Source: Thermoanaerobaculia bacterium (lineage in GTDB: Bacteria > Acidobacteriota > Thermoanaerobaculia > Gp7-AA8). Taken from it: a stretch of DNA of 64,000 nt. The position numbers and the translations under genes are program-made. Below the pieces are notes generated by a model that did not search any database, was not told the origin of the DNA, and saw only the letters and a list, made by a program, of their open reading frames with translations. Location of the stretch: positions 122 to 64,121 of the forward strand of contig DASXHZ010000058.1 of the NCBI GenBank assembly GCA_036488085.1, in the 5' to 3' direction. Below are positions 5,891 to 35,955 of this stretch, in pieces (position 1 is the first letter of the stretch; each line of letters starts with the position of its first letter).

Positions 5891-6149
5891 GAGAGTAATG
5901 AAAACGCAGCGCTATTCTGCGACCGTGACTGAGATCGGTGAGAGGATCACCGTAGACCCGGAGCAGTGCGGCGGTAGACCGTGCATCCGCGGGATGCGAA
6001 TCCGCGTGAGCGATGTGCTCGACCTCTTCGCGAGCGGCCTGTCCAGCGCTGACATTCTTGCGGAGATCCCGGATCTCGAGGCCGAAGATCTCCATGCCTG
6101 TCTACGTTTTGCGGCGCGATACCTCGACCACCCGGCGCTCGTCGCTTGA
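5889..6149 (+). CDS. DUF433-type small protein (antitoxin-like)
   Basis: MRVMKTQ...ITVDPEQCGGRPCIRGMRIRVSDVLDL matches the GG.P.I.G.RI core of DUF433. Confidence 0.7.
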   Translation: MRVMKTQRYSATVTEIGERITVDPEQCGGRPCIRGMRIRVSDVLDLFASGLSSADILAEIPDLEAEDLHACLRFAARYLDHPALVA

Positions 6150-6202
6150 TCGTCTGGGTCGACGCCCAACTCGCACCGGCTCTGGCTCAGTGCTTCGTAT
6201 AG
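6146..6202 (+). pseudogene. Truncated remnant of a DUF5615/PIN-like partner of DUF433
   Basis: TTG at 6146 overlaps the DUF433 stop. It reads LIVWVDAQLAPALAQCFV then TAG. The VDAQL..LA pattern is the usual N-terminus of DUF5615 proteins, but only 18 codons remain. Confidence 0.35.
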
Positions 6203-6208
6203 GCGACA

Positions 6209-7048
6209 ATGTCCGTCATGCCGTCACTACCGCCGCCCATTCCGACCGTCACGTCGATCGATGAGGTGATCGCTGCGATTCAGGGGATCATTGGTTGGAC
6301 GATTTCCGCCGAGAGCCGCCTCGGGTACTTCGCGGCGCTCTACAAGCGGATCACGATCGCGATCAAGCAGGGGATCGCGGGGAACATGTTTCAGGACGGG
6401 CCGCGGATGGAGCGCTTCGACGTCACGTTCGCGAGCCGCTACTTCGCGGCGTTCAACGCCTACTTCTATCCGGCGCAGTATCCGTCGGTCTCGCACTGCT
6501 GGCGCGTGGCGTTCGACGCGGCGCTGCTTCCCGCGCCGATCATCGTGCAGCACATGATCGCCGGTGTGAACGCGCACATCGACCTCGATCTCGGCATCGC
6601 CGCCGAGACGGTCGCGCCCGGGAAGCAGATCGACTCGCTCCACCACGACTTCAACACGGTGAACGCCGTCCTCTCCAGCCAGGTGTCGACCGTCGTCACC
6701 GAGATCGATTCGCTCTCGCCGATACTCGCCGACATCTACTCCGTACTGATGGGGCACGAGCTCGACCTGATTGCTGACGGCCTGGTGGCCACGCGCGACT
6801 CAGCATGGCTCTTCGCCAAGGAACTCGCCATCGAACCGGCGATCCTTCACCCGACGACGATCCTGATTCACGACTTCAAGGTGGCCGCCTTCGGCAACCT
6901 GATCCTGCATCCACCCAAACTGATCGCCGATGCGGTGGCCGTCATCGCATCCGCGGAAAGCCGCGACATCGTCAAGAACATCCAGACGCTCGACGCCATC
7001 GCGAATACCCCGGCGCCGATGACCAGGAGCGCGGCGGCGAAGATCTAG
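6209..7048 (+). CDS. Hypothetical protein (DUF5995-like by recollection)
   Basis: 279-aa ORF with protein-like composition and a GYFAALYKRITIAIKQGI...FQDGPRMERFDVTFASRY block. The family assignment is from memory only. Confidence 0.7.
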   Translation: MSVMPSLPPPIPTVTSIDEVIAAIQGIIGWTISAESRLGYFAALYKRITIAIKQGIAGNMFQDGPRMERFDVTFASRYFAAFNAYFYPAQYPSVSHCWRVAFDAALLPAPIIVQHMIAGVNAHIDLDLGIAAETVAPGKQIDSLHHDFNTVNAVLSSQVSTVVTEIDSLSPILADIYSVLMGHELDLIADGLVATRDSAWLFAKELAIEPAILHPTTILIHDFKVAAFGNLILHPPKLIADAVAVIASAESRDIVKNIQTLDAIANTPAPMTRSAAAKI

Positions 7049-7515
7049 CGAGTGCCGAGATCGTAGAGGAGCTCGCAGAGGCGGGAGAGATCGCGGCAGT
7101 CGCGGGCGCTGAGACGGCTCGCGACCTCTTCGAAGGCTTGCTGCATCGGGACGTCGATCCGCTCGAGGAGCCTGAGGCCGTCGCGCGTGATGCGGGTGAT
7201 CGAGTGCCGTTTGTCGCTCCCGCCGCGAGCGCGCTGCACGAGTTTTTTCGCCGCGAGGCGGTCGACGATGCGCGTGACGTCGGGAGCACGGTCGAGCATC
7301 CGGACGGCGATCTCGCCGCGCGGATGGCCGTCGGGATGAACACCGCGGAGGATCCGGAGGACGTTGTATTGCGGGAGGGTGATGTCGAACGCCGAGACGA
7401 CGCGTTCGCTCTGCTCCCGGAGATAGTTCGCCGCAACGGACAGGTTCAGCAGCGCCTCCTGCTGCGGAGAGGCGAAGTGCTCCTGTTGGATGCGCTGCCG
7501 AAGACCGGACCCCAC
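7045..7515 (-). CDS. MarR-family transcriptional regulator
   Basis: 156 aa with a winged-helix block ITLPQYNVLRILRG...GEIAVRMLDRAPDVTRIVDRLAAKKLVQR...DKRHSITRITRDG. Confidence 0.85.
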   Translation of the reverse strand: MGSGLRQRIQQEHFASPQQEALLNLSVAANYLREQSERVVSAFDITLPQYNVLRILRGVHPDGHPRGEIAVRMLDRAPDVTRIVDRLAAKKLVQRARGGSDKRHSITRITRDGLRLLERIDVPMQQAFEEVASRLSARDCRDLSRLCELLYDLGTR

Positions 7516-7614
7516 GGATGAGTTTTATCACGCTATCGATGAAACAGGCGGCAGGCGTCTCCGTATACTACGAAGCTCATCGTCCTAGTCGAAACACTGA
7601 GGAGGCATAGCCCT

Positions 7615-9162
7615 ATGCGTTTGAAGTCCTTTGCGGCCGCAGCCGCGATTCTCTGCGTCGCCGGCAGCGGCGCGTTTTCAACACTCCGTGCCGACGATCC
7701 GAAACCGGCCGACAAGGCGGCTGCCGCGAAGCCCGCTGAAAAGGCGGAAAAGCCGGAGCCGAAGAAGTTCGTGAAGCAGCACCACGCCCACATCGGCGAT
7801 GCCGATGTGAACTACACCACCACGTCCGAGGAGATCTTCCTCAAGGACAACGACGGCAAGGAGACCGCGAGCTTCTTCACCATCGCATATACAAAGGATG
7901 GCGTCGCGCGGGCGGAAGACCGCCCCGTCACCTTCGTCTACAACGGCGGTCCCGGCTCTGCCTCGCTCTTCCTGCACTTCGGCCTCGTCGGGCCGAAGGT
8001 GATCGACATCCCGAGCGACGCCACCGATCCCGGCGCGCCGCCGTACAAGCTGCGCGACAACCCTGCCACGATCTTCCGCGCCACCGACCTCGTATTCGTC
8101 GATCCGATCGGCACCGGCTACAGCCACGCCATGGGCGACAAGAAGAACGAGGACTACTGGGGCTACGACGAGGACGCCGACTCCGTCGCGGAGTTCATCC
8201 GCACCTGGATCACGCAGCACAATCGCTGGAACTCCCCGAAGTATCTCCTCGGCGAGAGCTACGGCGGCATCCGCTCGTCGATGCTCGTTCCGCGGCTGCA
8301 GGGAAATCTAAACATCGGTCTCAACGGCGTGATCCTCATCTCTCCGGCGCTTAACATGGGAACGCTGCCGTTCATCACGACGGGGAACGATCTCTCCTAC
8401 GCGACGACGCTCCCGGCGCTCGCGGCCGCGGCTTACTACCACCACAAGCTCCCGGACCAGTGGAAGGACCTCGACACGCTGCTGAGGGAAGTCGAGCACT
8501 TCGCCGGCAACGAGTACCTCCTCGCGCTCTTCCAGGGCGACACGCTCGACAAGGCTTCCAAGGACAAGATCGCGGATTCGCTGCACCGCTACACGGGACT
8601 CTCGAAGGAGTACATCCTCCGCAGCGATCTGCGCATCTACGCGATGCGATTCACGAAGGAGTTGCTGCGCGACGAAGGGAAGTCGATCGGTGCGCTCGAC
8701 GACCGCTACGCGCAGGACGAGCTCGATCGCGTCGCAGAGTTCCCCGACAACGATCCGTTCGACGCGAAGACCGGTCCGATCTACGTCACACTCTTCCAGA
8801 ACTATCTCCGCAACGACCTCGGCGTCGACTGGGACAAGCGCTATTTCCCGCAGAACGGCGAGGCGAACCAGAAGTGGAAGCGGCCGGCCAACCGCCGCGG
8901 CGCGTTCGCGGGCTTCGTCGACGTCACCGGCGCGCTCGCGCAGGGGACGAAGGACAACGAGGCGCTACGCGTCTTCTCGGCGTCCGGCTACAACGATCTC
9001 GTGACGTCGTACTTCGCGAACAAGTACATGCTGACGCACAGCGGCATCGATCCGAAACGCCTGGTCATCAAGCAGTACCCCGGCGGACACATGATGTATC
9101 TCCACCACCCCTCGGAAGAGGCAGTCTCGAACGACATCGTGGCGTTCATCGAAGGGAAGTAG
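7615..9162 (+). CDS. Secreted serine carboxypeptidase-like protein (peptidase S10 type)
   Basis: Signal peptide [29 protein letters not shown] block and GESYGG nucleophile motif. GGAGG precedes the ATG. Confidence 0.8.
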
Positions 9163-11332
9163 GGTCCAACTTCTGATTGCGCAGTCGCAAAGCGTTCGCG
9201 ATGACGGTCACGCTGCTGAACGTCATCGCGGCGCTCGCGATGATCGGACTCAGGAGCACGCCAAAGAACGGATACAGCACGCCCGCCGCGATCGGCACGC
9301 CGAGGATGTTGTAGATGAAGGCGAAGAACAGGTTTTGCCTGATGTTTTGCATCATCGCCTCGGAGAGCCGGCGCGCGCGGGCGATGCCGCGCAGGTCGCC
9401 TTTCACCAGCGTGATGCCCGCGCTCTCGATCGCGATGTCCGTCCCGGTACCCATCGCGATTCCAACGTCCGCGCGCGAGAGGGCGGGAGCGTCGTTGACG
9501 CCGTCGCCCGCCATCGCGACGCGGTGACCTTCCGACTGCAGCTTCCGCACGACGTTCTCTTTGTCCGCCGGCAGCACCTCGGCTTCCACGCGATCGATTC
9601 GGAGCTTTCGGGCGACCGCCTCGGCGGTCGTACGCGCGTCGCCGGTCAGCATCACGACGTGGATGCCGTTCGCGTGCAGCGCTTGTAGTGCATCGGACGT
9701 CGTCGCCTTGATCGGATCGGCGATTGCGATCAGCGCCGCCGGTTTATCGTCGATCCGCGCGAAGACGACGGTGCTGCCATCGGTACGCAGCCGGTTCGCG
9801 GCCTCCTCATCGAATGACTCGTTCGTCACGCTGACGTGCGCCCCGTCGACGATTCCCGTCACGCCGCGGCCGGCGATCGTCTTGACGTTCGTCGCATTCT
9901 TCGTCTCCGGCGCAGCGGAGACCATCGCGTTCGCCAGCGGATGCTCGCTCGAACGTTCCACGCTCGCGACGAGCGACATCACATTTGCTTCGTCGAAGCC
10001 GTTGCGCGTCTCGACGTGGACGACCTTCGGTCTGCCTTCCGTGAGCGTCCCGGTCTTGTCGACAACGACCGTGTCGACTTTCGACAAGACCTCCAGCGCC
10101 TCGGCATTCCGCACCAGGATCCCGTTCGTCGCGCCCCGTCCGGTCGCGACCATGACGGACATCGGCGTCGCAAGCCCGAGGGCGCAAGGGCAGGCGATGA
10201 TCAGCACGGCGACCGCATTCACGAGCGCGCTGCTTAGCGTGCCGACGCTCAACCAGACGATGAACGTCACGATCGCGACGGCGATGACGATCGGTACAAA
10301 CCACCCGGAGACGACGTCGGCAAGCCGCTGAATCGGCGCTCGGCTGCGTTGCGCCTCGGCGACCATGCGCACAATCTGCGCGAGGAGTGTATCGGGGCCG
10401 ACGTGCTCGGCACGCATGATGACGGAGCCGGTCGTCACGACCGTTCCCGCGGTGACCTTACCGCCTTTCTCCTTCTCGACCGGCAGCGGCTCGCCGGTGA
10501 TCGTCGACTCATCGACCGCGCAGTTGCCTTCATCCACGACGCCGTCGACCGGCACGCGCTCCCCCGGCCGGATGCGGATCCGCATGCCGGTCTTGATGTG
10601 GTCGACCGGCATGTCGTGCTCGCCGTGATCCATCACGACACGCGCGGTCTTCGGCGTCAGGCCGAGGAGCGACTTGATCGCGTGCGACGTCCGCTCGCGC
10701 GCGCGCAACTCGAGAACCTGCCCGAGGAGCACGAGCGTCGTGATGATCGCGGCCGGCTCGAAGTAGAGCGGCAGGTGCAAGCGCGGCGCGAAGACGGCGA
10801 CGATGCTGAACCCGTACGCCGCGCCGGTGCCGAGGGCGATCAGCGTGAACATGTTCAGGTGCCGCGTGACGACCGACATCCAACCGCGCACGAAGAACGG
10901 CCAGCCGCCCCAAAGAACGACGGGTGTCGCAAGCGCGAACTGCACCCAAGGCAACATCATCCCGCCCATGCCGAGGACGAGAATCGGAACCGCGAGAACG
11001 GCGCTGACGATCAAGCGCCGCTGCATGTCGATCAGCTCTTCGTTCGGCTGCTCGTCGAGCGTGACCAAGCGCCGCTCGAGCGCCATCCCGCAAATCGGAC
11101 ACGCCCCCGCCTTGTCGCGCACGACCTCGGAGTGCATCGGACACATCCAGGTTTGTCCCTCTCCCTCCGGGAGAGGGTGCCGCGAAGCGGCGGGTGAGGG
11201 GCGTGCCTCTCGCTCGAACTTCGCGCGACACTCCGCACAACAGAAGTAATACCTCTCGCCATGGATCACGGCGGACTCCGCCGTCTCCGTGTCGACGCTC
11301 ATCCCGCACACCGGATCGACTGCTTTCGCCAT
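9146..11332 (-). CDS. copA: Cu(I)-translocating P1B-type ATPase
   Basis: Start at CAT 11330-11332 ([13 protein letters not shown]). CPC in a TM helix ([13 protein letters not shown]), DKTGTLT phosphorylation site and GDGVNDAP hinge. The track ORF extends 135 codons further upstream without support. Confidence 0.9.
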
Positions 11333-11413
11333 GCGATCCGATCGTATCCGAATGGCAACCCCGCCTTCCGTCACTCCTGCTACACTGCCTCGTATCAGCT
11401 CCAGACAATTCGA

Positions 11414-12277
11414 ATGAACCCGGAAGAGCGCTTCCTGGCGAACGTACCGACGATCGAGAGGATCGCCGCGTTCTATTGCCGCCGCATGCACCTCGGCGAT
11501 GCCGACACCGAGGATTTCGTCAGCTATGTGAAGCTCGAGCTGATCGAGCGGAACTACGAGATCATCGGAAAGTTCGAGGGCCGAAGCTCGTTCAGCACCT
11601 ACCTCACGACCGTCATTCACCGGCTCCTCTATCAGCAGCGGACGAAGGAGTGGGGGAAGTGGCGCCCGTCGGCCGAGGCGAAGCGGATGGGCGATGTCGC
11701 GATCGCGCTGGAGCGGCTGACGACGCGAGACGGCCACTCCCTCGCTGAGGCGATCGAGATGATGACCACCGGCAACGCGCCCGCGGCATCGCGACGGGAG
11801 CTCGAAGCGATCGCGCTACGCCTTCCGCCGCGCGCGCCGCGTCCGATCCTGGTCACCGAAGAGGCGGTAGAGGACCTCGTCACCGCGGCCGACGATCCGT
11901 CCGACGGCCCGATCTCGCGCGAGCGCGAGCGTCTCGCACGCCGCGCCGCCTCGGTCCTCGACGAGATCATGAATTCGTTGGAGCCCGAGGACCGGCTGAT
12001 CCTCAAGATGCGCTTCTGGAGCGCGCAACGCATCGCCGACATCGCCGCCACGCTCCACCTCGACGCGAAGAAGACCTACAAACGGATCGAGAAGCTCCTC
12101 GGCAAGCTCCGCGCCGCGCTCGAGCGCGCCGGCATCGGCCGCAAAGAGATCGACGACCTCTTCGCGCACGGCGACCGGCCGGTCGAGATCGTGCCGGCCG
12201 AGGGAATTCCACCGTCACGTCCCTCCAAACCAGCGGGGGACTTCGGGGGCGGGGAGAGCCGGCTATCGGGGAGATGA
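11414..12277 (+). CDS. ECF-type sigma-70 factor
   Basis: ATG at 11414 (MNPEERF). Region-2-like [24 protein letters not shown] and region-4 [38 protein letters not shown]. The stop overlaps the next ATG (ATGA at 12274-12277). Confidence 0.8.
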
Positions 12278-15200
12278 AGGAACCGATGGAACACTCCGCA
12301 TTCCCCTCAGACGAGACGCTCGCCGCGTTTATCGACGGACGACTCGACGAGGAGACGAGGAAACGAGTGGTCGCCCACGTTGCGGATTGCGAGGAGTGCT
12401 ACGGGACGGTGATGGCGTCTGGAGCGTTACAGCACGCCGACGAGAAACCACTCATCGTTTCGCGCCTGCGTTCGTGGAAGGCGCTCTCGATCTCGTCCCG
12501 GTCAATTGCAGCAGCCGCAGTGATCGCGATGGTGATTTTCCGGGCTCCGTTGCGGGATCGGTATCGCGACTACACCTATGAACGCCGAACTGGCATCCGA
12601 GGGATTGTAGATGCCGCGAACCTGACAGCATCCCGGGACATTGCTGGCCGTCTGAGCGGGCCGTTCGAGTACAAGCCGCTCGTCATCTTGCGCGGCCCGG
12701 GTGATGATTCCGACAAATGGTCGCTCAAAGGAGCGGCGGGTGCTTTACGATCCGATGTCGGCCGAGACGCTTCTGCTGACAAGCTTCACGGTCTCGGTGT
12801 TGCGCATCTCCTCGTCGGCGAATATGACGCCGCAGTTGATGCGCTTGAGGACGCCCTTGCAAAGGAGACCGGTGAAGCGAACTCACCTAGAGCGATTGCC
12901 GAGTGTCGCGATGCTCGACTTCTTACAGACTTAAGCGCTGCGTATGCGGCGCGCTCAGCGGACACACATAGCTCTCACGATGCCCCGGGCAGTTCTCAAG
13001 ATGCGTTGGCTGCTGATGACGCCGCCGAACGAGCCTGGGCTCTAGAGCAGTCACCCCAGGCCGCCTGGAACCGTGCGATAGCCGCTGAGTCTATGCACGC
13101 GAGACCGCTCGCGATTCAGGCTTGGCGTGATTATCTGGCTCTTGACTCCAGTTCGCGATGGAGCGCCGAAGCTCGCGATCACCTTTCATCGCTGACAGCA
13201 ACACGCGGAGCCGAAGACTGGCCATCCGCCAAAGCACGCATGGTTGGCGCCTTGGGTCGCGGGGAAAACAGCACAGTAGCCGATGTCGTTCGCTCGTTCT
13301 ACCCCCAGAGCCGGTCGTACCTCGAAGACGAACTTCTCCCTCGTCTCGCGCAAGACGCATCGGACAGAAGTACCGCAGCTATCGTCGACGGGTTGGCACG
13401 TGCCATATCCGATGTTTTCGGTGATCGGACGGTAATCGACTCACTGCCCTATCTAAAGGATCCGCTTGTTGCGGCGGCTGTTGCAGAATTCGGCGCCGCC
13501 CGTAAGAATCGATCGCTACCGCTCGACCACATCGCCACAACACTTGTTGCTTCGGGAGTTCCACTTGGTGGCCGTGCGCAAGTCTTTGCGGCGTTCTCGA
13601 CCTATTACGCACATCACTATTCGGACGCGATCGACAAAGCACGCGCAGCGCGTTCTACTTTCGGCATTGATCACTTTCCGTCAGTCGTAGCCCAATCGTT
13701 GTGGATCGAGGGTCTAGCGCTTGCTTCAGAACGCAAGCTTGGCGAGGCAAACGCTGCATTATCGCAGGCTATCACGCTTTTCTCCAAACTGAATGATCCT
13801 AGAAGCATCGCTGGCCTCGACGGCGTAATCTCGGATAATTATAGGCTTGCGGGCGACCCTCGCTCCGCATTGACAGCCTTGATCGACGCTCTGGCCGTGA
13901 GGGAAGCCAGCGGCTGGGACATTGATTACATTTGCTTCAGCGATCTGGCAAAGACATGCGATCTGATGGGATCTCGGTCTGCGACGCTTGCATTTCTTGA
14001 TGCCGCGCTCCGCCGTGCGGCCGCCGATCATTCGGCGGCGGAGACCACAGACGCCCTCGTTGCGCGAGCGGAGCTTCGCCATGCCTCTGGTGACGACGAC
14101 AGTGCGCTCACCGACATTCACGATGCCGAGCGAGAAATAACAGGCGTTAAGAGCGATCAGGATCGAGTCCGACTCAACATGTATCTAGACGTGGTTGTAG
14201 GCAATGCGCTCGCAAGAAGAAGCCCGCGACAGGCTTTGCAGCACCTCGTGCGTGCCGTCTCGGTGGCAAAAGCCCTCGGCAGCCCTGAACACATTCTCAT
14301 GGCCCTCTACGGCCGTGGCGTCGCGGAGCGAACACTTGGAAACGAGGCTCAAGCGGTCGCAACTCTTAAAGAAGCATTTGTCGAAGCGGAGCGGCAGAGG
14401 AAAGACATCGACGGCGATGACACACGAGTGTCGCTGGTAGATTTCGTTAGGCCGGTAGAAGACGAACTGGTACGGTCGTTTATAGAGACTGGGCACGGCG
14501 AGGAGGCCCTCCTTTGGTCCGAACGAGCGAAAGGGCGCGTCACTTTGGATTCCGCGCGAGCTCACGGTGTCGCGGTCATCGATCCTGTAACCGTATCCGA
14601 TCTCGCCGAAAGCGTAGAACCGTCCACTAATTATGTAGAATTTCAGGTGCTTCCCGACGCCGTTGCGATATGGACGGTGGGTGCCGGCAAGGTAGGATTC
14701 CAACTGACCCGCATTCGAAAGACAGATCTTGAATCACGCATACGGTCGCTGTCGTCCGCCGCATTTAGAGGTGACGACATCCTGTTCGCGCGAGTTTCGA
14801 CGGAGATCTATTCGATGCTTATTTCGCCCGTTGAGGACTACTTCGCTGGCGACCAAGTGACGCTAATACCGGACGCCGTGCTGACGTCTGTGCCCTGGCC
14901 GGCTCTCAAATCTCCAAAGACAGGGGAGCGGCTTGGCGGTCGGTATGCGCTGGCCGTCGCGCCGTCGATTACTTGGTGCATTAGTCGTAAAAGTAACACT
15001 GACAAAACGCCACTGTCCAGAATCGCAATCGTTGTAGGCGGAAGCGACGGAGGGCTGCGCGCTCTCCCTGAGGCGGAGGCGGATGCAGAAAGGCTTGCGT
15101 CGTTATTCGTTCATCACGAGACTCTCGCGGGCAACGTAACCGATTCGGACGTCCGCCGCTCTGCGTCGGCTCAACAGATCCTCCATTTCGCTGGACATGC

Positions 15201-15576
15201 GGATCATGACGCGCTTCTTGTAGGAAGACCACCGCACCGGTTGGACCTTGGTACTATCAGAGGTATAGACTTTTCGCGTGTACGCTTGATAACTCTGGCG
15301 GCATGCGCGACCTCACGTGGCCGCGCTACCAGCGACGGCTCGATGAGTCTTGCGCGGGCATTCCTAGTGGGAAACGCGCCGAGCGTACTGGCGACAAATA
15401 CGCCGATCGACGATTGGCTAGCCAGTCGCTTGTCCGAAGCATTCTATCGTCGGCTACCTAGAAGCGAGGGAATCGCCGACGCGCTCCGCGCCGCGCGTTT
15501 GGATATTTGCCAATCGCCGGCGAATTCTACAACCCAGTGTTGGGCCGCGTTTCAGGTTTGGGGGGTCGCTGCCTGA
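12274..15576 (+). CDS. Anti-sigma (zf-HC2) - TM - TPR-like - CHAT-domain protease fusion
   Basis: N-terminal HVADCEEC (H-x3-C-x2-C), hydrophobic SIAAAAVIAMVIF, and a long Ala/Leu-rich helical repeat region. The C-terminus carries the CHAT dyad context ILHFAGHADHD and ITLAACATSRG. Confidence 0.85.
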   Translation: MKEPMEHSAFPSDETLAAFIDGRLDEETRKRVVAHVADCEECYGTVMASGALQHADEKPLIVSRLRSWKALSISSRSIAAAAVIAMVIFRAPLRDRYRDYTYERRTGIRGIVDAANLTASRDIAGRLSGPFEYKPLVILRGPGDDSDKWSLKGAAGALRSDVGRDASADKLHGLGVAHLLVGEYDAAVDALEDALAKETGEANSPRAIAECRDARLLTDLSAAYAARSADTHSSHDAPGSSQDALAADDAAERAWALEQSPQAAWNRAIAAESMHARPLAIQAWRDYLALDSSSRWSAEARDHLSSLTATRGAEDWPSAKARMVGALGRGENSTVADVVRSFYPQSRSYLEDELLPRLAQDASDRSTAAIVDGLARAISDVFGDRTVIDSLPYLKDPLVAAAVAEFGAARKNRSLPLDHIATTLVASGVPLGGRAQVFAAFSTYYAHHYSDAIDKARAARSTFGIDHFPSVVAQSLWIEGLALASERKLGEANAALSQAITLFSKLNDPRSIAGLDGVISDNYRLAGDPRSALTALIDALAVREASGWDIDYICFSDLAKTCDLMGSRSATLAFLDAALRRAAADHSAAETTDALVARAELRHASGDDDSALTDIHDAEREITGVKSDQDRVRLNMYLDVVVGNALARRSPRQALQHLVRAVSVAKALGSPEHILMALYGRGVAERTLGNEAQAVATLKEAFVEAERQRKDIDGDDTRVSLVDFVRPVEDELVRSFIETGHGEEALLWSERAKGRVTLDSARAHGVAVIDPVTVSDLAESVEPSTNYVEFQVLPDAVAIWTVGAGKVGFQLTRIRKTDLESRIRSLSSAAFRGDDILFARVSTEIYSMLISPVEDYFAGDQVTLIPDAVLTSVPWPALKSPKTGERLGGRYALAVAPSITWCISRKSNTDKTPLSRIAIVVGGSDGGLRALPEAEADAERLASLFVHHETLAGNVTDSDVRRSASAQQILHFAGHADHDALLVGRPPHRLDLGTIRGIDFSRVRLITLAACATSRGRATSDGSMSLARAFLVGNAPSVLATNTPIDDWLASRLSEAFYRRLPRSEGIADALRAARLDICQSPANSTTQCWAAFQVWGVAA

Positions 15577-15653
15577 AGCGGTATCCAGGACACCTCGGTG
15601 GACGAATATGAACCAAAAATGACTGCTAACAGAGAATAGAAAGGGACCGCTGC

Positions 15654-16706
15654 ATGCATCTCCGCACCACGGCATTCACCTTGTTCTTTACGCTCACTCT
15701 ACCGGCCGCGACGCAAGCCGATCTCACGATCGAAGCGGCGAAAGCCGTCAGTCTCTCGCCGCCCGGCGACCCTAAGAACTTCCCTGTCGAAGTTCACGTC
15801 ATTACCAGCGGCGTATGCACATTCGACTTAGCCGACAATAGGATCATCGTTCCTCGGCACGACAAGAAGCAGGGACATGTTCCGGCGCATAAGGCATATC
15901 TTCTCTTTGAGGAGTCGGAGCTCGCCGCGAGTTCCTTTCCTGATGAACTTCTTCATATCGATGATAAGTTTACAGGCCGGAAGCAGGTAGTTTACCCATT
16001 GGATGGGGATGAGTTATCGATTTCGACCGCTAACACTCCCGATGACAAGGTCGTTGCAACCGTGCCTGCGCAGGGCACGCATTGCCCGGTGAACGAATTG
16101 GATGTCTCTATGCACTGGGTGCCGAGCCTCTCAAGCGTTCTTGGAACACCTGTTGAGGTAGACCGAGACTATTTGACCAAGAAGAATGACCAGCCTGACA
16201 AGGTCGCAGGGACGCTCCTCTTTGCTCAAACGGGACGCTTGGACGCACACGTCATCGATAAAAACCTTTATGAGTTTGTGGACGACGGCCGTGATAGAAG
16301 TCATATGCAGGCGATTGCTCAATTGGTAGACTATACGTTTCGCGCAACAGATGTGCTCGTCCTGAATCGAAAGAAGGGGAATAATCCACCGGACAAAGCT
16401 TTCCTGAAGCTTCAGGCGGACCCGACGACACCTCAAAAGATATACTTGAAGCTAGCCAACACACCTGACTATGTACTCGAGGGCCCGATGCCGTCTCGGG
16501 AGCGAGATGAGCATTGGGATCTTCATTATGATATGGTGCGAAATGCGGGCAATCACCCCATTCCGACGCCGACGTTCGCGAACTGCACCGGGGTGCCGGT
16601 TGTGAACTGCCAGCCGGCAACCGGATTATGTACCTCGGTGGTTTCCAGTGCATCGTTTACTTTGTCGGTCGGAGGTCTCGATTGCGGTCCCGATGGTTTG
16701 CCATAG
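15654..16706 (+). CDS. Secreted hypothetical protein, Cys-containing C-terminus
   Basis: 350 aa with signal peptide MHLRTTAFTLFFTLTLPAATQA. AT-richer codon usage like its neighbours. No family recognised. Confidence 0.7.
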   Translation: MHLRTTAFTLFFTLTLPAATQADLTIEAAKAVSLSPPGDPKNFPVEVHVITSGVCTFDLADNRIIVPRHDKKQGHVPAHKAYLLFEESELAASSFPDELLHIDDKFTGRKQVVYPLDGDELSISTANTPDDKVVATVPAQGTHCPVNELDVSMHWVPSLSSVLGTPVEVDRDYLTKKNDQPDKVAGTLLFAQTGRLDAHVIDKNLYEFVDDGRDRSHMQAIAQLVDYTFRATDVLVLNRKKGNNPPDKAFLKLQADPTTPQKIYLKLANTPDYVLEGPMPSRERDEHWDLHYDMVRNAGNHPIPTPTFANCTGVPVVNCQPATGLCTSVVSSASFTLSVGGLDCGPDGLP

Positions 16707-17605
16707 GCGCGAGGTTTCTCTGGACGACGGTTCTCGCGATCTTATGCGAATCGGCCTTGGGTCAAACGATACCTGGCGACTGTGTCACGGTGACATCAGC
16801 GGACGGAGACTGCGCGCTGAAATGTGCCGCGCAGGCATTAGGGGGCAGCTCCCATGATAGTAATGTCGTTGCATTGGGAAATCTGAAGACGTGCATCGGG
16901 GCTGATCGGACACGGCGTGTGACGATTGTAGGTCATGGTTTGCCAGGATTTTTGTATACCAATGTCGACAACGTACCTACGGCGCATGTGCTCGATGAGG
17001 ATACACTTTCCGACTTTAGCAACTATCTTCCGGTTTCGCCGGCTGAGATTGTTTTGTTTGGTTGTGATGTCGGAAAGGGATCGACGGGGGCGAAGGTAGT
17101 AAGAGAGGTGGCCGCATTTACGGGGGCGACCGTGTTCGCACGAACAGGGTTTATATTTTGTGCTTGCGGTGGCCCGTGTACGTATGAACCCGGCACAGGT
17201 TGGGTCAGTTCCGACTCCGCCCAAAGATTCGCTGCCGAGCCGACGCGCCAGACGGCCACGTTGACCGGCCACATCGCGCGGTTGCAGTTGCAGGTACCGT
17301 GGCCGTTGGTCAAGCACATTTCGTTGACCTTGCTGTCCGTTAGTGGTGAGGTGATTTTTGAGCGTGAACTTCACGGAAGAGAGGTTGCGGGTCTGCTTCG
17401 GCTGTTCATTCAACGCGCGAAATTCGTGGATCCGGGTTGCCCTCTTGCGGCGAAGGCGGCGGTCGTCGAGATCGATTTCGCCAACAAACACCGTCGGTTC
17501 GACATATACAATGATCGGTTGGCGGTTGATTCGACCAGCAGGGCATGGTACGCCGTAACGGATTTCGGTAAGTTTCGTCTAAAACTGTTGGGCAAGGATC
17601 GCTGA
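16628..17605 (+). CDS. Secreted DUF4347-like protein
   Basis: VTIVGHGLPGFLY ... IVLFGCDVGKGSTGAKVVREVAAFTGATVFARTG matches the remembered DUF4347 pattern (HG..G.L...ilLyGC.vg.G..G..f...la..tGa.V.A). A TTG at 16682 gives a cleaner signal peptide (RSRWFAIGARFLWTTVLAILCESALG). Confidence 0.7.
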   Translation: MYLGGFQCIVYFVGRRSRLRSRWFAIGARFLWTTVLAILCESALGQTIPGDCVTVTSADGDCALKCAAQALGGSSHDSNVVALGNLKTCIGADRTRRVTIVGHGLPGFLYTNVDNVPTAHVLDEDTLSDFSNYLPVSPAEIVLFGCDVGKGSTGAKVVREVAAFTGATVFARTGFIFCACGGPCTYEPGTGWVSSDSAQRFAAEPTRQTATLTGHIARLQLQVPWPLVKHISLTLLSVSGEVIFERELHGREVAGLLRLFIQRAKFVDPGCPLAAKAAVVEIDFANKHRRFDIYNDRLAVDSTSRAWYAVTDFGKFRLKLLGKDR

Positions 17606-17885
17606 AGCATTTCCGGCAGCATCCCAGGAGGCCGGGAGTTAACGGATTCCTGTTGTGGCGTCTCCACCATCGATAAGCGGTGACGATGTCGGGTTGTGTC
17701 ATCATCGTCGACGACTTTACACAACAACGACGTCTTTACACGATCCTCCTCGGCCCACTACCGTCGCGGCGGCATGTGGCGCGTCTCGATGCCGTCCATC
17801 TCGGGCTTGACGAGATCGACGAAGAGGAGGCCGGTGGTCTCGTCCCAGAATGGCGGCAGGTGACTTCTCACAGTCGCGACGTGCG

Positions 17886-18075
17886 AAATTACCTTTGCGA
17901 GGTAGGTTTCCACCTTTTTCACGTGCAACCCTACGTCGTCGACGTAGGTTCCTACCCTTTTCGTGGTTCCTCCCTACCTTCGCGACGTAGGTTCCTACGA
18001 GAAAAAGGTGCATCCATACCTTGGCGAGGTGACTCCCCACCTTCGCGAGGTAGGTTGCTACGTCTTTGGAGTTCG
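17886..18075. repeat. Degenerate 21/42-bp tandem repeat (array B)
   Basis: GTAGGTT cores at 17902, 17944, 17987 and 18050, with a GGTGACT variant at about 18028. The 21-nt unit is like ACCTTCGCGA(G/C)GTAGGTTCCT. It includes the near-palindrome CCTACGTCGTCGACGTAGG. Confidence 0.7.
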
Positions 18076-18117: not shown

Positions 18118-20199
18118 TTACTCCGCCGGCACGTACGTCGGGTCGAGCGAGGAGTTGTCGAGCACCGAGGCGTAGGCGGCGACGCGGCCGGTGCCGCCGG
18201 CGACTTCTACGGCGATGCGGGCGTTGTACATCTGGGTGCCGCTGCCGTAGGCCTGCTCGATGATGCGGTCGAACTTGTGGAACTCGTTGGGCTGGAGCGT
18301 GTAGTTCACGATCGCGGAGGTGCGGCCGTCGGGCGGGATGATGGTCAGCTTCACGGTCGTCTGGATGCCGCTCAGCTCCGTGATGCCGACGTTCGACCGG
18401 AACTGCGAGGACTGCTCGAGTTGCAGGAGTTGGAGCGGCTTGTCGCCGGCGCCGATTCCGGCGGCGGGGCTGACGCCGGGGATGAATTGGCCGAAGGTGC
18501 CGCTGTGGCTGTCGTAGCTGTACGTGCGGCCGGTGGCGACCAGCGATGAAGCGTTGCTTGTCGTCAGCAGGATCGACCCGCCGCCGTTGGTGACGTTGAA
18601 GAGCGACGGAAGGACGTTGTCGTACGCCTTCACCTGTCCCGCGCCGATTGTGATCGGGGCGACGGTGACCGGCGAGCCGCCCTGCGGGAAGAACGTCGGG
18701 GTGACGCTCACGCTCGTCGAACCGCCGTTGTAGATGCGCATGTCGGAATGGAAGTTGGAGAACGGCGAGACGATCTCCGCCATCCCCGGCACGATGTAGC
18801 GCGACGCGCTGACCTGCGATGCCTGAACGGGCATCACCGCGAGCGGATCGGCGGTGATGTTGTCGAGCACTGAGGCGTAGGCGGTGATGGCGCCGGTGGG
18901 GGAGTCGACGGTGATCTCGATGCGGCCGTCGTCGAGGTTCGCGATGCCGGCGACGTTCTTGATGAACTGGTTCATCTGCTGGTGCTCGCCGGGCTGGAGC
19001 GAGTAGGGGAGTTCCTTCAGCACGTTGCCGAGATCGTCGATGACGCGAATGCGGCCGCTTGCCGGCGTGCCGGAGCCTTCGACGAGCCCGAGGTTCGTGC
19101 GGAACTTCGCTGACTCGGCGACCTGCTGCAGGCTCAAGACGGCCGGCGCGGTCGTCGGCTGGCCGAAGATCGACGAGGTCGCGGGGCCGGCGAACTGCGC
19201 GAACGGAATCGCGCCGACGAACTGGCCGTATGTGCCGAGGGCCGTCGTGGCGAAGGTGCGGCTCGCGGCGTACGTGAGAGTCGACGAGTTGTTGATCGGA
19301 CGGATCTCGAGGGCGCCGATGTCATTGACGTCGCCGGTAGCGCCGTAGCCGAAGAAGTCCTTCGCGATGTCGTTGAGCGCAATGGTCTGGCCGCCGGCGA
19401 TGGTGAGGTTGGTGATCTTTCCGGTCTGCGTGCCGTCGCTACGCGTCGGCGTGAAGGTGATCTGGTAATTGACTGGCGAGGCGGCGGCGTTCGTGATGCG
19501 GACGTCCGACTGGAACGGCCCCGCGGCGCTGTTGACGTGCGTGACGACCGGGATGATCAGCGCGTTGCCGGGTGGCAGCGCCTTTCCGCCGAGCGCGACG
19601 GGCGTCACGAGGCTGACGGACACGGGCGTGTTGATCGGCGCGCCGTTGCTCGGCGTGACCGTGACCGTTCCGGTGTTCGCGCCGGGCGGCAGGTTCACCG
19701 GCTGGGCGGTGACGGTGAGCGTCGTTCCGCTCGGCGGCAGCGTGCCGCTCGCCGGCGTGACAGCGAGGAAGCTGCTATCGGTCGTGGCGGTGTAGCTGCT
19801 GCTGTCGAGCGCGGTTTTCGCGGTGGGGCCTGGGACGAAGATCTGGAACGTCACCGGCTTCGTCGATCCGAACGGAACCACCGTATCAACACTCTTCGAC
19901 GATGGCGGCGGAGGCGCCTGAACGACTGTATCGACGGTCGTCGAGAACGGGCCGGGCGCGCCGCCGCAATTCAGCGCATGGACGCGGTAGTAGTACGGCG
20001 TGTTCGCCGTGACGCTGTGCGTGAACGTGGTCGACGTTCCGCTGACGGCCTTCGACGTCACGTTCGCGGTGAAGTCGGCGCTCGTCGACTCATCGACCTG
20101 GTAGCTCGTCGGATCGGCGGTCGCGGTCCACGAGACGGTGTAGTCGATGCCGGACTGCGAGATCGGCGGCGTGCTGATGACCGGCGTGCAGGTCGGCAA
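18118..20199 (-). CDS. Large secreted repeat protein, C-terminal 693-aa reading frame (FN3-like domain plus repeated beta-sandwich modules)
   Basis: FN3-like DYTVSWTATADPTSYQVDESTSADF...YYYRVHALN. Repeated modules end ..AYASVLDN(I/S)(T/S)(A/L)DP. This frame stays open upstream of the TTG at 20199 to about 20,290 without a plausible start or signal peptide. Confidence 0.8.
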   Translation of the reverse strand: MPTCTPVISTPPISQSGIDYTVSWTATADPTSYQVDESTSADFTANVTSKAVSGTSTTFTHSVTANTPYYYRVHALNCGGAPGPFSTTVDTVVQAPPPPSSKSVDTVVPFGSTKPVTFQIFVPGPTAKTALDSSSYTATTDSSFLAVTPASGTLPPSGTTLTVTAQPVNLPPGANTGTVTVTPSNGAPINTPVSVSLVTPVALGGKALPPGNALIIPVVTHVNSAAGPFQSDVRITNAAASPVNYQITFTPTRSDGTQTGKITNLTIAGGQTIALNDIAKDFFGYGATGDVNDIGALEIRPINNSSTLTYAASRTFATTALGTYGQFVGAIPFAQFAGPATSSIFGQPTTAPAVLSLQQVAESAKFRTNLGLVEGSGTPASGRIRVIDDLGNVLKELPYSLQPGEHQQMNQFIKNVAGIANLDDGRIEITVDSPTGAITAYASVLDNITADPLAVMPVQASQVSASRYIVPGMAEIVSPFSNFHSDMRIYNGGSTSVSVTPTFFPQGGSPVTVAPITIGAGQVKAYDNVLPSLFNVTNGGGSILLTTSNASSLVATGRTYSYDSHSGTFGQFIPGVSPAAGIGAGDKPLQLLQLEQSSQFRSNVGITELSGIQTTVKLTIIPPDGRTSAIVNYTLQPNEFHKFDRIIEQAYGSGTQMYNARIAVEVAGGTGRVAAYASVLDNSSLDPTYVPAE

Positions 20200-20289
20200 C
20201 GCGCCGTTCGCGAACGCGTAGACGAAGTTGAAGTCGCCGTTCGGATCGCTCTGGTCGAGCCATTCCGTGAAGCCAATGATCGGCAGGGT

Positions 20290-20690
20290 GCGGGCGCGCC
20301 GGCGCCCGGCATCACCTGCACGCTTGTCGTCAACGTCCCGCCCGGCGCGATGGACGATGCGCCGAAGCAGAGGACGAAGCTCTCGGTGGTGTCCGCCGGA
20401 TCGTCAGCGGAGTTGAAGCAATCCTCGGTGGTCGGAAGTCCAGAGTTGAAGTTCGTCACCGCGGCCTGCTGCGGCGGCACCTCCACGGTGTATCCGGTGA
20501 AGAAGAGGGCGCTGCAGACATTGCTCCCGTTGTTCATCGTCGTCGACGTGCACGTCGTCGCCTGTCCGGAGTGGAGCGTCGGGCAGGAGACCGTGATGGT
20601 CAGATCGCAGGTGGCGGCGTGGACGGCGAGGGGAGAGGCGAGGAGAACGAGAGAGAGAAACCACCGTGGAAGGGACCGTGCGCGGGACAA
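20290..20690 (-). CDS. N-terminal, signal-peptide-bearing part of the same secreted protein, in a different frame (frameshift or split gene)
   Basis: TTG at 20690 lies 9 nt after AGGAGG. Signal peptide MSRARSLPRWFLSLVLLASPLAVHA. Sequence is protein-like to ..TSVQVMPGAGAPAP, then turns into an Arg/Ser-rich out-of-frame tail (the track ORF runs to 20058). Confidence 0.65.
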
Positions 20691-20733: not shown

Positions 20734-20866
20734 GTTATTCGTTACTCGTTATCCGTTATCCGTTATCCGTTATCCGTTATCCGTTATCCGTTATCCGTTA
20801 TCCGTTATCCGTTATCCGTTATCCGGTCATCCGTCGAGTAACGAATCACGAGTAACGAGTAACGAT
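20734..20866. repeat. Heptanucleotide microsatellite (GTTATCC)x11 with degenerate flanks and GAGTAAC repeats (family 1)
   Basis: Eleven perfect GTTATCC units at 20748-20824. GTTATTC and GTTACTC precede them. GGTCATCCGTCGAGTAACGAATCACGAGTAACGAGTAACG follows them. Confidence 0.9.
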
Positions 20867-35680: not shown

Positions 35681-35955
35681 CGTTTCAGCTGGCGTACTGC
35701 GGATTTCACGTGGCGCCCACGCTGCTTTTGTCGTGCGCAGCGTGGCTCGGGGTGAAACCCGCGCGGTGTCACGTGGCGCACGCCGGGTTTCAGGTGGAGC
35801 ACGCCGGGTTTCAGGTGGCGCGCGCCGGGTTTCAGGCGGAGCACGCCGGGTTTCAGGTGGCGCACGCCGGGTTTCAGGTGGCGCACGCCGGGTTTCAGGT
35901 GGAGCGCGGCGGGCTTCAGGCGGAGCGCGGCGGGCTTTAGGTGGCGCCAGCGAGG
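35681..35955. repeat. 21-bp tandem repeat, about 9-12 units (array C)
   Basis: Contiguous units of TTTCAGGTGG(C/A)GC(A/G)CGCCGGG from 35767 to 35955, with degenerate copies from 35681. Two adjacent units at 35851-35892 are identical. Confidence 0.9.

Follow-up and report, generated by a model that had tools for sequence, protein, structure and literature searches.

A candidate DdvA-type CHAT anti-sigma operon in a Thermoanaerobaculia bacterium and its recurrent partner G3

How a sigma factor might be released from a membrane anti-sigma factor that has a candidate protease built into it is the question raised by a four-gene locus in a Thermoanaerobaculia bacterium (GenBank assembly GCA_036488085.1, contig DASXHZ010000058.1). 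The locus lies within a stretch of 64,000 nucleotides, positions 122 to 64,121 of the forward strand of the contig, which is referred to here as the window. It encodes an alternative sigma factor, an anti-sigma factor carrying a TPR scaffold and a terminal CHAT domain, a third protein termed G3 and a fourth protein with a DUF4347 domain (Table 1). An initial annotation, made from the letters of the sequence, had likened this arrangement to the type III-E CRISPR protease known as craspase and proposed that autoproteolysis by the CHAT domain could free the sigma factor. On balance, the locus is better read as a distant sigma/anti-sigma signalling operon of the DdvS/DdvA type, presumably operating by a DdvA-like mechanism. 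The design itself is already known, as DdvS/DdvA of Myxococcus xanthus.

DdvA is composed of a cytoplasmic zinc-binding anti-sigma (ZAS) domain of ~70 residues, a transmembrane helix (W71-L92), a flexible linker and a periplasmic TPR-CHAT region of ~900 residues (PMC11506125). Its structures, solved by cryo-electron microscopy (8ROT and 8RW5), hold a catalytic dyad of H862 and C907 (PMC11506125). A 2018 paper proposed that the CHAT and TPR modules orchestrate the inactivation of DdvA (PMC6061681). In the model of a 2024 paper, a signal induces CHAT autoproteolysis, which takes place in trans and at the linker, after which RseP cleaves and DdvS is released (PMC11506125). Truncated DdvA is degraded by RseP, and promoters that depend on DdvS become active when DdvA is lost (PMC11506125, PMC6061681). 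Hallmarks of the DdvA-like class also include physical sequestration of the sigma factor and an arrow-shaped, dimeric assembly.

The anti-sigma factor, its sigma factor and the operon

The anti-sigma protein of the window matches three Pfam families, namely zf-HC2 (30.7 bits; cut-off 22.2), TPR_12 (37.9 bits) and CHAT (131.8 bits), the last with E=4e-38 and spanning profile positions 3-288 of 289. Conservation was assessed in an alignment of 57 homologues that are ~22-57% identical to the window protein. Within the ZAS domain, H35, C39 and C42 are each at least 90% conserved and are aligned to the H-x3-C-x2-C motif of DdvA; H7 is an uncertain candidate for the fourth zinc ligand. Further along the chain, the juxtamembrane arginines R121, R126 and R140 are also conserved at 90% or above. 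The motif to which they belong is shared with the linker region of DdvA and with all other CHAT-partner forms, including those without a ZAS domain or a transmembrane helix, and it may serve as a cleavage or docking element. The two residues of the presumed catalytic dyad, H975 and C1011, are invariant in 57 of 57 homologues and align with H862 and C907 of DdvA when counted along the profile alignment. Invariance of the dyad across homologues this divergent argues for catalysis.

The relationship to DdvA emerged at the level of profiles and folds, as phmmer with the single anti-sigma sequence found no match in the PDB. The profile built from the 57 homologues, searched against the PDB with hmmsearch, matches the DdvA chain 8rot_B with E=1.2e-37 over positions 14-660 and 956-1107, and the matched stretches take in the anti-sigma and linker motifs, the transmembrane region, the scaffold and the catalytic region. 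With the same alignment as input to AlphaFold2, the resulting model reached a mean predicted local distance difference test (pLDDT) of 89.6 and a predicted template modelling score of 0.84. Its top PDB matches in Foldseek are DdvA (8rw5 and 8rot_A; E=1.7e-19, ~1040 aligned columns), with a template modelling score of 0.68 normalised to the target and an identity of 16-17% in the Foldseek alignment. Separases (E ~1e-15) and then the craspase protease Csx29 (E ~1e-12) rank after DdvA, so that the craspase link drawn in the initial annotation holds as a similarity of fold, and extends to separase. The remaining sequence readings of that annotation were also borne out: the ATGA overlap, the four open reading frames (ORFs), the motifs HVADCEEC, HFAGHA and LAACAT and the hydrophobic segment SIAAAAVIAMVIF all lie where they had been placed. 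Profile searches likewise recover each of the zf-HC2, TPR, CHAT and DUF4347 domains, and the profiles together with the invariant H975 and C1011 substantiate the proposed fusion of anti-sigma domain, membrane segment, TPR and CHAT with a His/Cys dyad and a cognate sigma factor encoded upstream.

The placement of the catalytic region follows from that of the N-terminal domain: since this domain has to contact a cytoplasmic sigma factor, the TPR-CHAT region should be extracytoplasmic, as it is in DdvA. The periplasmic orientation suggested initially is thus upheld by homology to a protein whose membrane-spanning structure has been solved. The transmembrane helix was called from Kyte-Doolittle hydropathy and from alignment to DdvA, in which the segment falls on helix W71-L92. 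It could be argued that the hydrophobic segment is no membrane helix and the whole protein cytoplasmic, like Csx29, or that the ORFs are products of chance or decay. The hydrophobic core in the window is indeed short and contains Ser and Arg (19-residue Kyte-Doolittle mean, KD19, of 1.91), and cytoplasmic pairs of CHAT protein and G3 exist, as in the related locus L032. An equivalent segment with a KD19 of at least 1.6 is nevertheless kept in 50 of the 57 homologues (median 2.37), in which Lys and Arg are richer on its N-terminal flank, and it aligns with a helix observed experimentally in DdvA. G3 and the fourth protein of the window carry signal peptides, all four ORFs are intact and their profile scores are strong. 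The E-values and the 1100-codon ORF far exceed chance expectation, and such an explanation is very improbable.

The sigma factor had been assigned to the extracytoplasmic function (ECF) type. This is supported by a match to TIGR02937, the sigma70-ECF family of NCBIfam (63.7 bits; cut-off 42.9), with weak matches to the Pfam families Sigma70_r2 and Sigma70_r4. ECF group 4 sigma factors, however, consist of sigma2 and sigma4 only and are about 170-220 residues long, whereas the window protein has 287 residues and comprises sigma2 (residues 13-80), an insert of ~100 residues (residues 80-180), sigma4 (residues 182-236) and a C-terminal tail. The insert is strongly conserved in an alignment of 16 family members, the mean column identity of which is 62%, and W80, G81, W83-R-P-S-A, R101, R105-D, P138, R140 and P142-R-P are invariant within it. 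No Pfam family matched the insert, and its identity as region 3 was rejected on finding no Sigma70_r3 match in any of the 16 members. No useful PDB match was found by phmmer with the single sequence. The best PDB matches of the family profile are the sigma4 regions of the non-ECF factors SigF and FliA, alongside the ECF factor SigL. None of the 8ROT chains, among which DdvS is assumed to be deposited, is matched by the profile at E<=0.1, and kinship with DdvS was set aside as a candidate explanation. Judged from its sequence, then, the ECF label fits this protein loosely: the family score sustains it, while the length, the insert and the lack of a profile match to DdvS do not.

Upstream of the sigma gene lies a motif resembling an extended -10 element, which may act as a promoter element. 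The form TGCTA[CG]ACT has a single exact match in the 64-kb window. Allowing up to one mismatch, CTGCTA[CG]ACT precedes the sigma start by 12-96 nucleotides in ~19 of 24 related loci (among them L004, L005, L008, L010, L012-L014, L017-L025 and L028) and almost nowhere else in those loci. A classical ECF -35/-10 promoter was sought upstream of the sigma gene and not found, the extended -10-like motif being the only element conserved there.

The gene boundaries point to joint expression. The sigma stop and anti-sigma start overlap in the ATGA read at 12274-12277, a gap of 77 nucleotides separates the CHAT gene from the G3 gene, and the G3 gene overlaps the fourth. Homologues of the anti-sigma factor begin with 'MEH' and the public gene call (P0001) has 1096 residues as against the 1100-codon ORF, so that translation may in fact begin at a second ATG, at 12286. 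This would leave 8 nucleotides between the sigma stop and the anti-sigma gene, and the two genes are tightly coupled with either start. Since the 77-nucleotide gap holds no second copy of the upstream motif and a scan of the same intergenic region found no terminator-like site, the four genes are probably carried on a single transcript. With somewhat more confidence than doubt, the locus can be regarded as a genuine four-gene operon whose membrane anti-sigma factor, bearing TPR-CHAT, holds the sigma factor.

Table 1. Features of the operon, in window coordinates.
Feature	Position	Strand	Basis or remark
Alternative sigma factor gene, 287 aa	11414..12277	+	start ATG agrees with homologue starts
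DdvA-like transmembrane anti-sigma gene, 1100 aa	12274..15576	+	ORF call; candidate alternative start 12286
G3 gene, 350 aa, signal-peptide protein	15654..16706	+	ORF call
DUF4347 protein gene, 325 aa, signal-peptide protein	16628..17605	+	ORF call; alternative TTG start at 16682
Promoter-like motif CTGCTACACT	11377..11386	+	extended -10-like TGnTAnAcT, 28 nt upstream of sigma ATG
Sigma insert, residues ~80-180	11654..11953		between sigma2 and sigma4
ZAS (zf-HC2) motif, residues 16-42	12319..12399	+	H35-x3-C39-x2-C42
Single transmembrane helix, residues 71-89	12484..12540	+	KD19 1.91
Juxtamembrane motif ASRDIAGRLSGPFEYKPLVILRG, residues 119-141	12628..12696	+	family consensus R-x-x-E-G-R-L-S-G-G-F-x-Y-x-P-L...R-G
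All-helical scaffold/TPR region, residues 145-780	12706..14613	+	AlphaFold2 secondary structure, Pfam TPR, alignment to DdvA scaffold
CHAT caspase-like domain, residues 785-1100	14626..15573	+	Pfam CHAT
Catalytic His975	15196-15198	+	within HFAGHA (15184-15201)
Catalytic Cys1011	15304-15306	+	within LAACAT (15295-15312)

G3 and the interchangeable peptidase slot

G3 is a conserved companion of the CHAT protein. Its designation in the initial annotation as a 350-residue protein of unknown family still stands: the window protein matches no family in Pfam, NCBIfam or PADLOC, and 16 G3 members searched against PADLOC gave no match either. When 1.84 billion representative proteins were searched in full with HMMER, 380 clusters of G3 were recovered at E<=1e-3, of which 97 also pass E<=1e-10; the matches listed are 183-421 residues long. 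Ten homologues that were looked up are all unnamed metagenome proteins. Word-index searches, begun from one sequence or from a 16-sequence alignment, returned 4-6 matches only, and a metagenome scan with the G3 alignment gave no confirmed locus. An AlphaFold2 model from seven sequences is mostly beta with a pLDDT of 50.7; this poor model has no Foldseek match at E<=0.001, and the G3 profile finds only weak matches in the PDB, to designed Ig-like proteins. G3 as a gasdermin or another defence protein was accordingly rejected as a candidate, with no PADLOC model matching the 16 members and no solved structure matching the family.

Among 24 non-redundant, full-length loci with room downstream of the CHAT gene, G3 lies directly downstream of that gene in 22, frequently with a gap of 0-30 nucleotides or with overlapping genes. 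Of the two loci that depart from this order, L022 encodes a protein that begins 'MEAELIISGLCSF' and resembles a divergent G3. Sampling in the reverse direction gave the same picture, as six of six G3 homologues (E from 2e-33 to 8e-10) immediately follow a CHAT gene, and G3 is absent from 35 loci whose anti-sigma factor is without CHAT. The CHAT partners are themselves of varied build, and include an anti-sigma factor with ZAS domain and transmembrane helix (L031), a protein with an N-terminal transmembrane or signal anchor only (L030), a cytoplasmic TPR-CHAT protein of 959 residues without a sigma gene (L032/L033), a 735-residue TPR-CHAT protein (L068) and a bare CHAT protein of 255 residues. 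The conserved core would therefore be CHAT and G3, to which sigma and anti-sigma were added in one branch. G3 appears to work specifically with the CHAT domain, whether as substrate, regulator or protease-controlled effector.

The compartment in which the two proteins could meet differs between loci. In the window, G3 and the fourth protein have signal-peptide-like N-termini (judged by eye), and a signal peptide or lipobox is also present on G3 in L001, L004, L006, L030 and L034. In 18 other loci G3 is without a signal peptide, and its CHAT partner mostly has a transmembrane helix and in many cases a ZAS domain. G3 begins directly at its first beta-strand in L002, L005, L008-L011, L015, L020, L026, L031, L035, L036, L038, L039 and L047. 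In these loci G3 and any caspase or trypsin fused to it should be cytoplasmic, with CHAT outside. The compartments are consistent in the window, where CHAT, G3 and the fourth protein would all be exported, in L030 (all exported) and in L032 (all cytoplasmic). A role for G3 purely as a CHAT ligand in the periplasm is weakened by the predominance of relatives without signal peptides, and the mismatch fits better, at least in part of the family, with G3 and the peptidase as an output arm. The two secreted proteins described at the outset are therefore a property of the window, as most relatives' G3 is without a signal peptide and the fourth gene is not conserved.

The gene that follows G3, or the domain fused to its C-terminus, differs between loci. 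A Peptidase_C14 caspase is fused to G3 in L005 and L011, separate in L010 and present as an upstream copy in L030; in L008 a fused C14 caspase was recognised by motif only (FSGH...DSCHSG, read by eye, with no Pfam match). Trypsin-type peptidases are separate in L002 and L009 and fused in L020. Metallopeptidases of the M36 (L004), M64 (L006, L030 and the P0124 locus) and M12B reprolysin-like (L038) types also occupy this position, as do a transglutaminase-like protein (L034), a DUF6345 protein (L036) and a second copy of G3 (L029), and in several loci no family was found. In M. xanthus the slot holds a C25-type peptidase and in the window the DUF4347 protein, whose match (37.5 bits; cut-off 24.6) covers residues 94-173 and profile positions 46-125 of 164. 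The latter carries the motifs VGHG and FGCDVG, which are reminiscent of clan CD peptidases. Its membership of that clan is unsubstantiated, as hhalign against the CHAT family was empty and the single sequence gave no PDB match at E<=10. From the family assignments, the fourth gene may represent an interchangeable peptidase arm.

This pattern raises the possibility, less probable than a DdvA-like switch and compatible with it, that the primary unit is a proteolytic cascade of CHAT, G3 and, where present, the peptidase. Sigma release would then be secondary, serving to report or amplify at the level of transcription, and the substrate of CHAT would be G3, the neighbouring peptidase or both, as in the SAVED-CHAT/PCaspase system or in gasdermin activation. 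The recurrence of G3 after CHAT genes of very different build (the 255-residue bare, 735-residue, 959-residue, transmembrane-only and ZAS-transmembrane forms) is in keeping with such a cascade, as are the G3 fusions with a C14 or trypsin domain seen in several loci and the peptidases of unrelated catalytic type that follow G3 elsewhere. Precedent exists in Haliangium ochraceum, where SAVED-CHAT of a type III-B/CBASS (cyclic-oligonucleotide-based antiphage signalling) system passes activity to PCaspase (10.1101/2023.06.23.546230). There, too, CHAT is coupled genetically to a second caspase-type peptidase, to which the C14 domain that follows or is fused to G3 in several relatives forms a parallel, and the downstream components include a sigma factor. 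SAVED-CHAT, however, is cytoplasmic and is activated by cyclic triadenylate binding to SAVED, whereas the window has no SAVED, CD-NTase or Cas10, and the SAVED-CHAT system has no counterpart of G3. Against a cascade stand the compartments, since in most loci with ZAS and transmembrane helix G3 and its fused caspase are without export signals; G3 also matches no gasdermin, other PADLOC model or solved structure. The bacterial gasdermin operons of Johnson et al. 2022 reportedly place a protein of ~300 residues without a signal peptide beside CHAT, caspase or trypsin-type proteases, the class of which is interchangeable. G3 differs from gasdermins in having no sequence match to PADLOC or to solved structures, and the window G3 has an export signal.

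A broader and more speculative reading, to which we give rather little credence, is that CHAT, G3 and an interchangeable peptidase form a widespread, undescribed proteolytic module that works in either compartment and has repeatedly been wired to transcription by fusion to an anti-sigma domain. The DdvA class, including the M. xanthus operon, would then be one branch. G3 may in that case be a new protease-controlled effector or adaptor, following a logic like that of gasdermin, securin or Csx30. The separase-securin pair offers a comparable arrangement, in which a big helical scaffold with a CHAT/caspase-like domain is tightly bound by a partner that regulates it or is cut. Separase is nonetheless eukaryotic, soluble and devoted to the cell cycle, and its likeness to the window lies in the protease fold, with G3 not tied to securin.

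Release of the sigma factor

The favoured reading, a DdvA-like switch, is applied to a locus for which homology, architecture, dyad conservation and synteny are established, and its dynamic steps would be those suggested by DdvA. At rest, residues ~1-60 of the anti-sigma factor, containing the ZAS motif, would hold the sigma factor at the membrane, while the bulky periplasmic TPR-CHAT region would block access by a site-2 protease. An extracytoplasmic signal, probably a protein, would be sensed by TPR-CHAT and activate the CHAT protease. The His/Cys dyad would then remove the periplasmic domain, plausibly by cutting in or near the juxtamembrane motif (residues 119-141), and RseP-type intramembrane cleavage would free the sigma factor. 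Once freed, it might drive its own four-gene operon, so that more G3 and more of the DUF4347 protein would be made. Release of sigma by CHAT autoproteolysis, as first proposed for this locus, agrees in outline with what is held for DdvA. The claim is not a novel one, having been published, as a model, in PMC6061681 and PMC11506125. Because the DdvS/DdvA papers already hold the same hypothesis, the initial annotation had re-derived a published model.

The likeness to DdvS/DdvA (PDB 8ROT, 8RW5 and 8RLZ) extends to every part of the anti-sigma factor from ZAS to CHAT dyad, in the same order, to the sigma gene directly upstream and to the proposed mechanism. The ddv operon of M. xanthus, in which sigma and anti-sigma factor are followed by an unknown protein and a C25-type peptidase, also has the same four-gene layout, with G3 and the unknown protein compared by position only. 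The differences are that the window anti-sigma factor is 16-17% identical to DdvA (Foldseek) and comes from another phylum, that the window sigma factor bears the ~100-residue insert and is not DdvS-like, that no CBASS or CRISPR island lies beside the window operon, and that the peptidase slot holds DUF4347 in place of a C25-type enzyme. Craspase (Cas7-11/gRAMP, Csx29, Csx30 and an RpoE-like sigma factor) shares the TPR-CHAT fold, in Csx29, and the use of a caspase-like protease to govern release of an alternative sigma factor. It is, however, a monomeric, RNA-guided system of the cytoplasm in which the protease and the sigma-binding Csx30 are separate proteins, and it needs Cas7-11 and CRISPR RNA, neither of which is found in the window.

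The classical pathways of RseA/DegS/RseP and RsiW/PrsW resemble the window in having a single-pass anti-sigma factor with a cytoplasmic sigma-binding domain, from which removal of the periplasmic part licenses a site-2 protease. They differ in that the candidate site-1 protease of the window is built into the anti-sigma factor. These pathways also suggest that CHAT could be a non-catalytic sensor or steric plug, with the anti-sigma factor clipped by a separate site-1 protease, either the gene-4 peptidase or a housekeeping enzyme, as in RseA/DegS/RseP. Such an arrangement is compatible with the resting state of DdvA, in which the dyad is mis-aligned and the active site is without a three-helix element (PMC11506125), and several loci do have peptidase genes with export signals within the operon. 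It is difficult to reconcile with the invariance of His975 and Cys1011 in 57 homologues. The class of the gene-4 peptidase varies, moreover, and the enzyme is sometimes cytoplasmic or absent, which makes it an unlikely dedicated site-1 protease. A purely non-catalytic CHAT is therefore considered unlikely.

Several points weigh against a DdvA-like switch in the window. The proteolysis of DdvA by CHAT itself stands as a proposal only. The sigma factor does not appear, from profile comparison, to be detectably DdvS-like, and the motif upstream of its gene resembles an extended -10 element as opposed to an ECF -35/-10 pair, for which reason autoregulation remains hypothetical. The fold of G3 is not predictable at a pLDDT of 50.7, and the predicted compartment mismatch in most relatives would speak against a universal periplasmic contact between CHAT and G3. 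Finally, there are no defence genes nearby, so that the biological role known from M. xanthus is not transferable.

Distribution, genomic context and significance

DdvA-like anti-sigma factors were reported by BLASTP only from Myxococcota and one Comamonas (PMC11506125). At the level of profile and fold, the CHAT anti-sigma family is common in Thermoanaerobaculia, beyond this published range. A genome scan yielded 24 loci, all from Thermoanaerobaculia or Acidobacteriota metagenome-assembled genomes, and a metagenome scan added 34; the CHAT anti-sigma homologues with a source name come from Thermoanaerobaculia and one Bryobacteraceae metagenome-assembled genome. Synteny was surveyed by ORF calling and hidden Markov model searches on all fetched loci. 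A sigma factor of the same family is encoded directly upstream of the CHAT anti-sigma factor in the surveyed loci, and the order sigma, CHAT anti-sigma, G3 and some peptidase is conserved, without specificity for DUF4347. The four-gene synteny suggested initially thus survives in this general form, though not for DUF4347, which is not conserved in its slot.

The same sigma family is also paired with 35 short anti-sigma factors of ~275-340 residues that have neither TPR-CHAT nor a G3 gene downstream (L012-L014, L017-L019, L021-L025, L028 and L040-L063; for example L018:9992-10885). These keep the ZAS domain, the transmembrane helix, the juxtamembrane motif and the first helices, and end just past the motif W..YL.LD..S.W..EAR. 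A split version occurs in L010 (5218-11827), where the sigma gene is followed by a short anti-sigma gene (6054-6971), a membrane-anchored TPR-CHAT gene without ZAS (7061-10258), G3 and a C14 caspase. A second pair of sigma and short anti-sigma genes lies just upstream in L010, and another CHAT gene lies downstream.

Defence genes adjoin only a subset of DdvA-like pairs (PMC11506125). Pairs of CHAT and G3 were seen near a TIR_2 protein in L029 (8585-10132) and, in the P0124 locus, near ResIII/RE_endonuc, Pkinase, Peptidase_C14, Tle1-like lipase and DUF3854 genes; the closeness of such pairs to defence-like genes is not systematic. A Reprolysin-type metallopeptidase and BNR/Sortilin-Vps10 proteins also recur near the module (L002:7100-9115 and L002:1465-4692, both on the minus strand, and L029:5169-8363).

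In the window, no cas, CBASS or other PADLOC-recognised proteins were found among the module and its neighbours, and the window contains no CRISPR-like array and no Rfam match, in agreement with the CRISPR-free setting described at the outset. The neighbours within ~15 kb are of housekeeping type, and around the module lie genes for a cyclophilin, a VanZ-like protein, a DUF5995 protein, an S10 peptidase, a copper ATPase-like protein, KsgA and a MoxR/DUF58/BatA-D set. Across the module (window 12001-18000) the GC content is lower, at 0.55-0.60, than in the surroundings (~0.65). A horizontal-transfer island was considered in view of this dip and rejected, as in locus L004 the module is likewise followed by ksgA and moxR; the shared neighbourhood indicates that inheritance of the module has been vertical, at least in part.

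Directly downstream of the module is a minus-strand ORF of 693 residues (18118-20199), rich in Thr, Ser and Pro and without a Pfam family, the start of which is overlapped by a 210-residue signal-peptide ORF (20058-20690, minus strand). Between the latter and ksgA lies a 7-nucleotide tandem repeat, GTTATCC, in 14.3 copies (93% matches; window 20734-20834). A 21-nucleotide tandem repeat of 8.6 copies (89% matches; consensus GGTTTCAGGTGGAGCACGCCG) occurs at 35765-35944.

What this locus adds to the known design is a DdvA-type family in Acidobacteriota, the pattern of CHAT, G3 and a variable peptidase, and a sigma factor that is not DdvS-like. As the module sits in an ordinary chromosomal context without CBASS or CRISPR, the design is a signalling device of general use, beyond the switching of defence islands. 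The invariant dyad and the juxtamembrane motif provide precise targets for mutagenesis. The pairing of CHAT with G3 and the swappable peptidase draw attention to components that were listed, yet unstudied, in the DdvA work, and make G3 and the peptidase concrete candidates for the trigger, substrate or output of the whole DdvA class. Should the wider proteolytic module prove real, G3 would be the missing link to the signal or output of DdvA.

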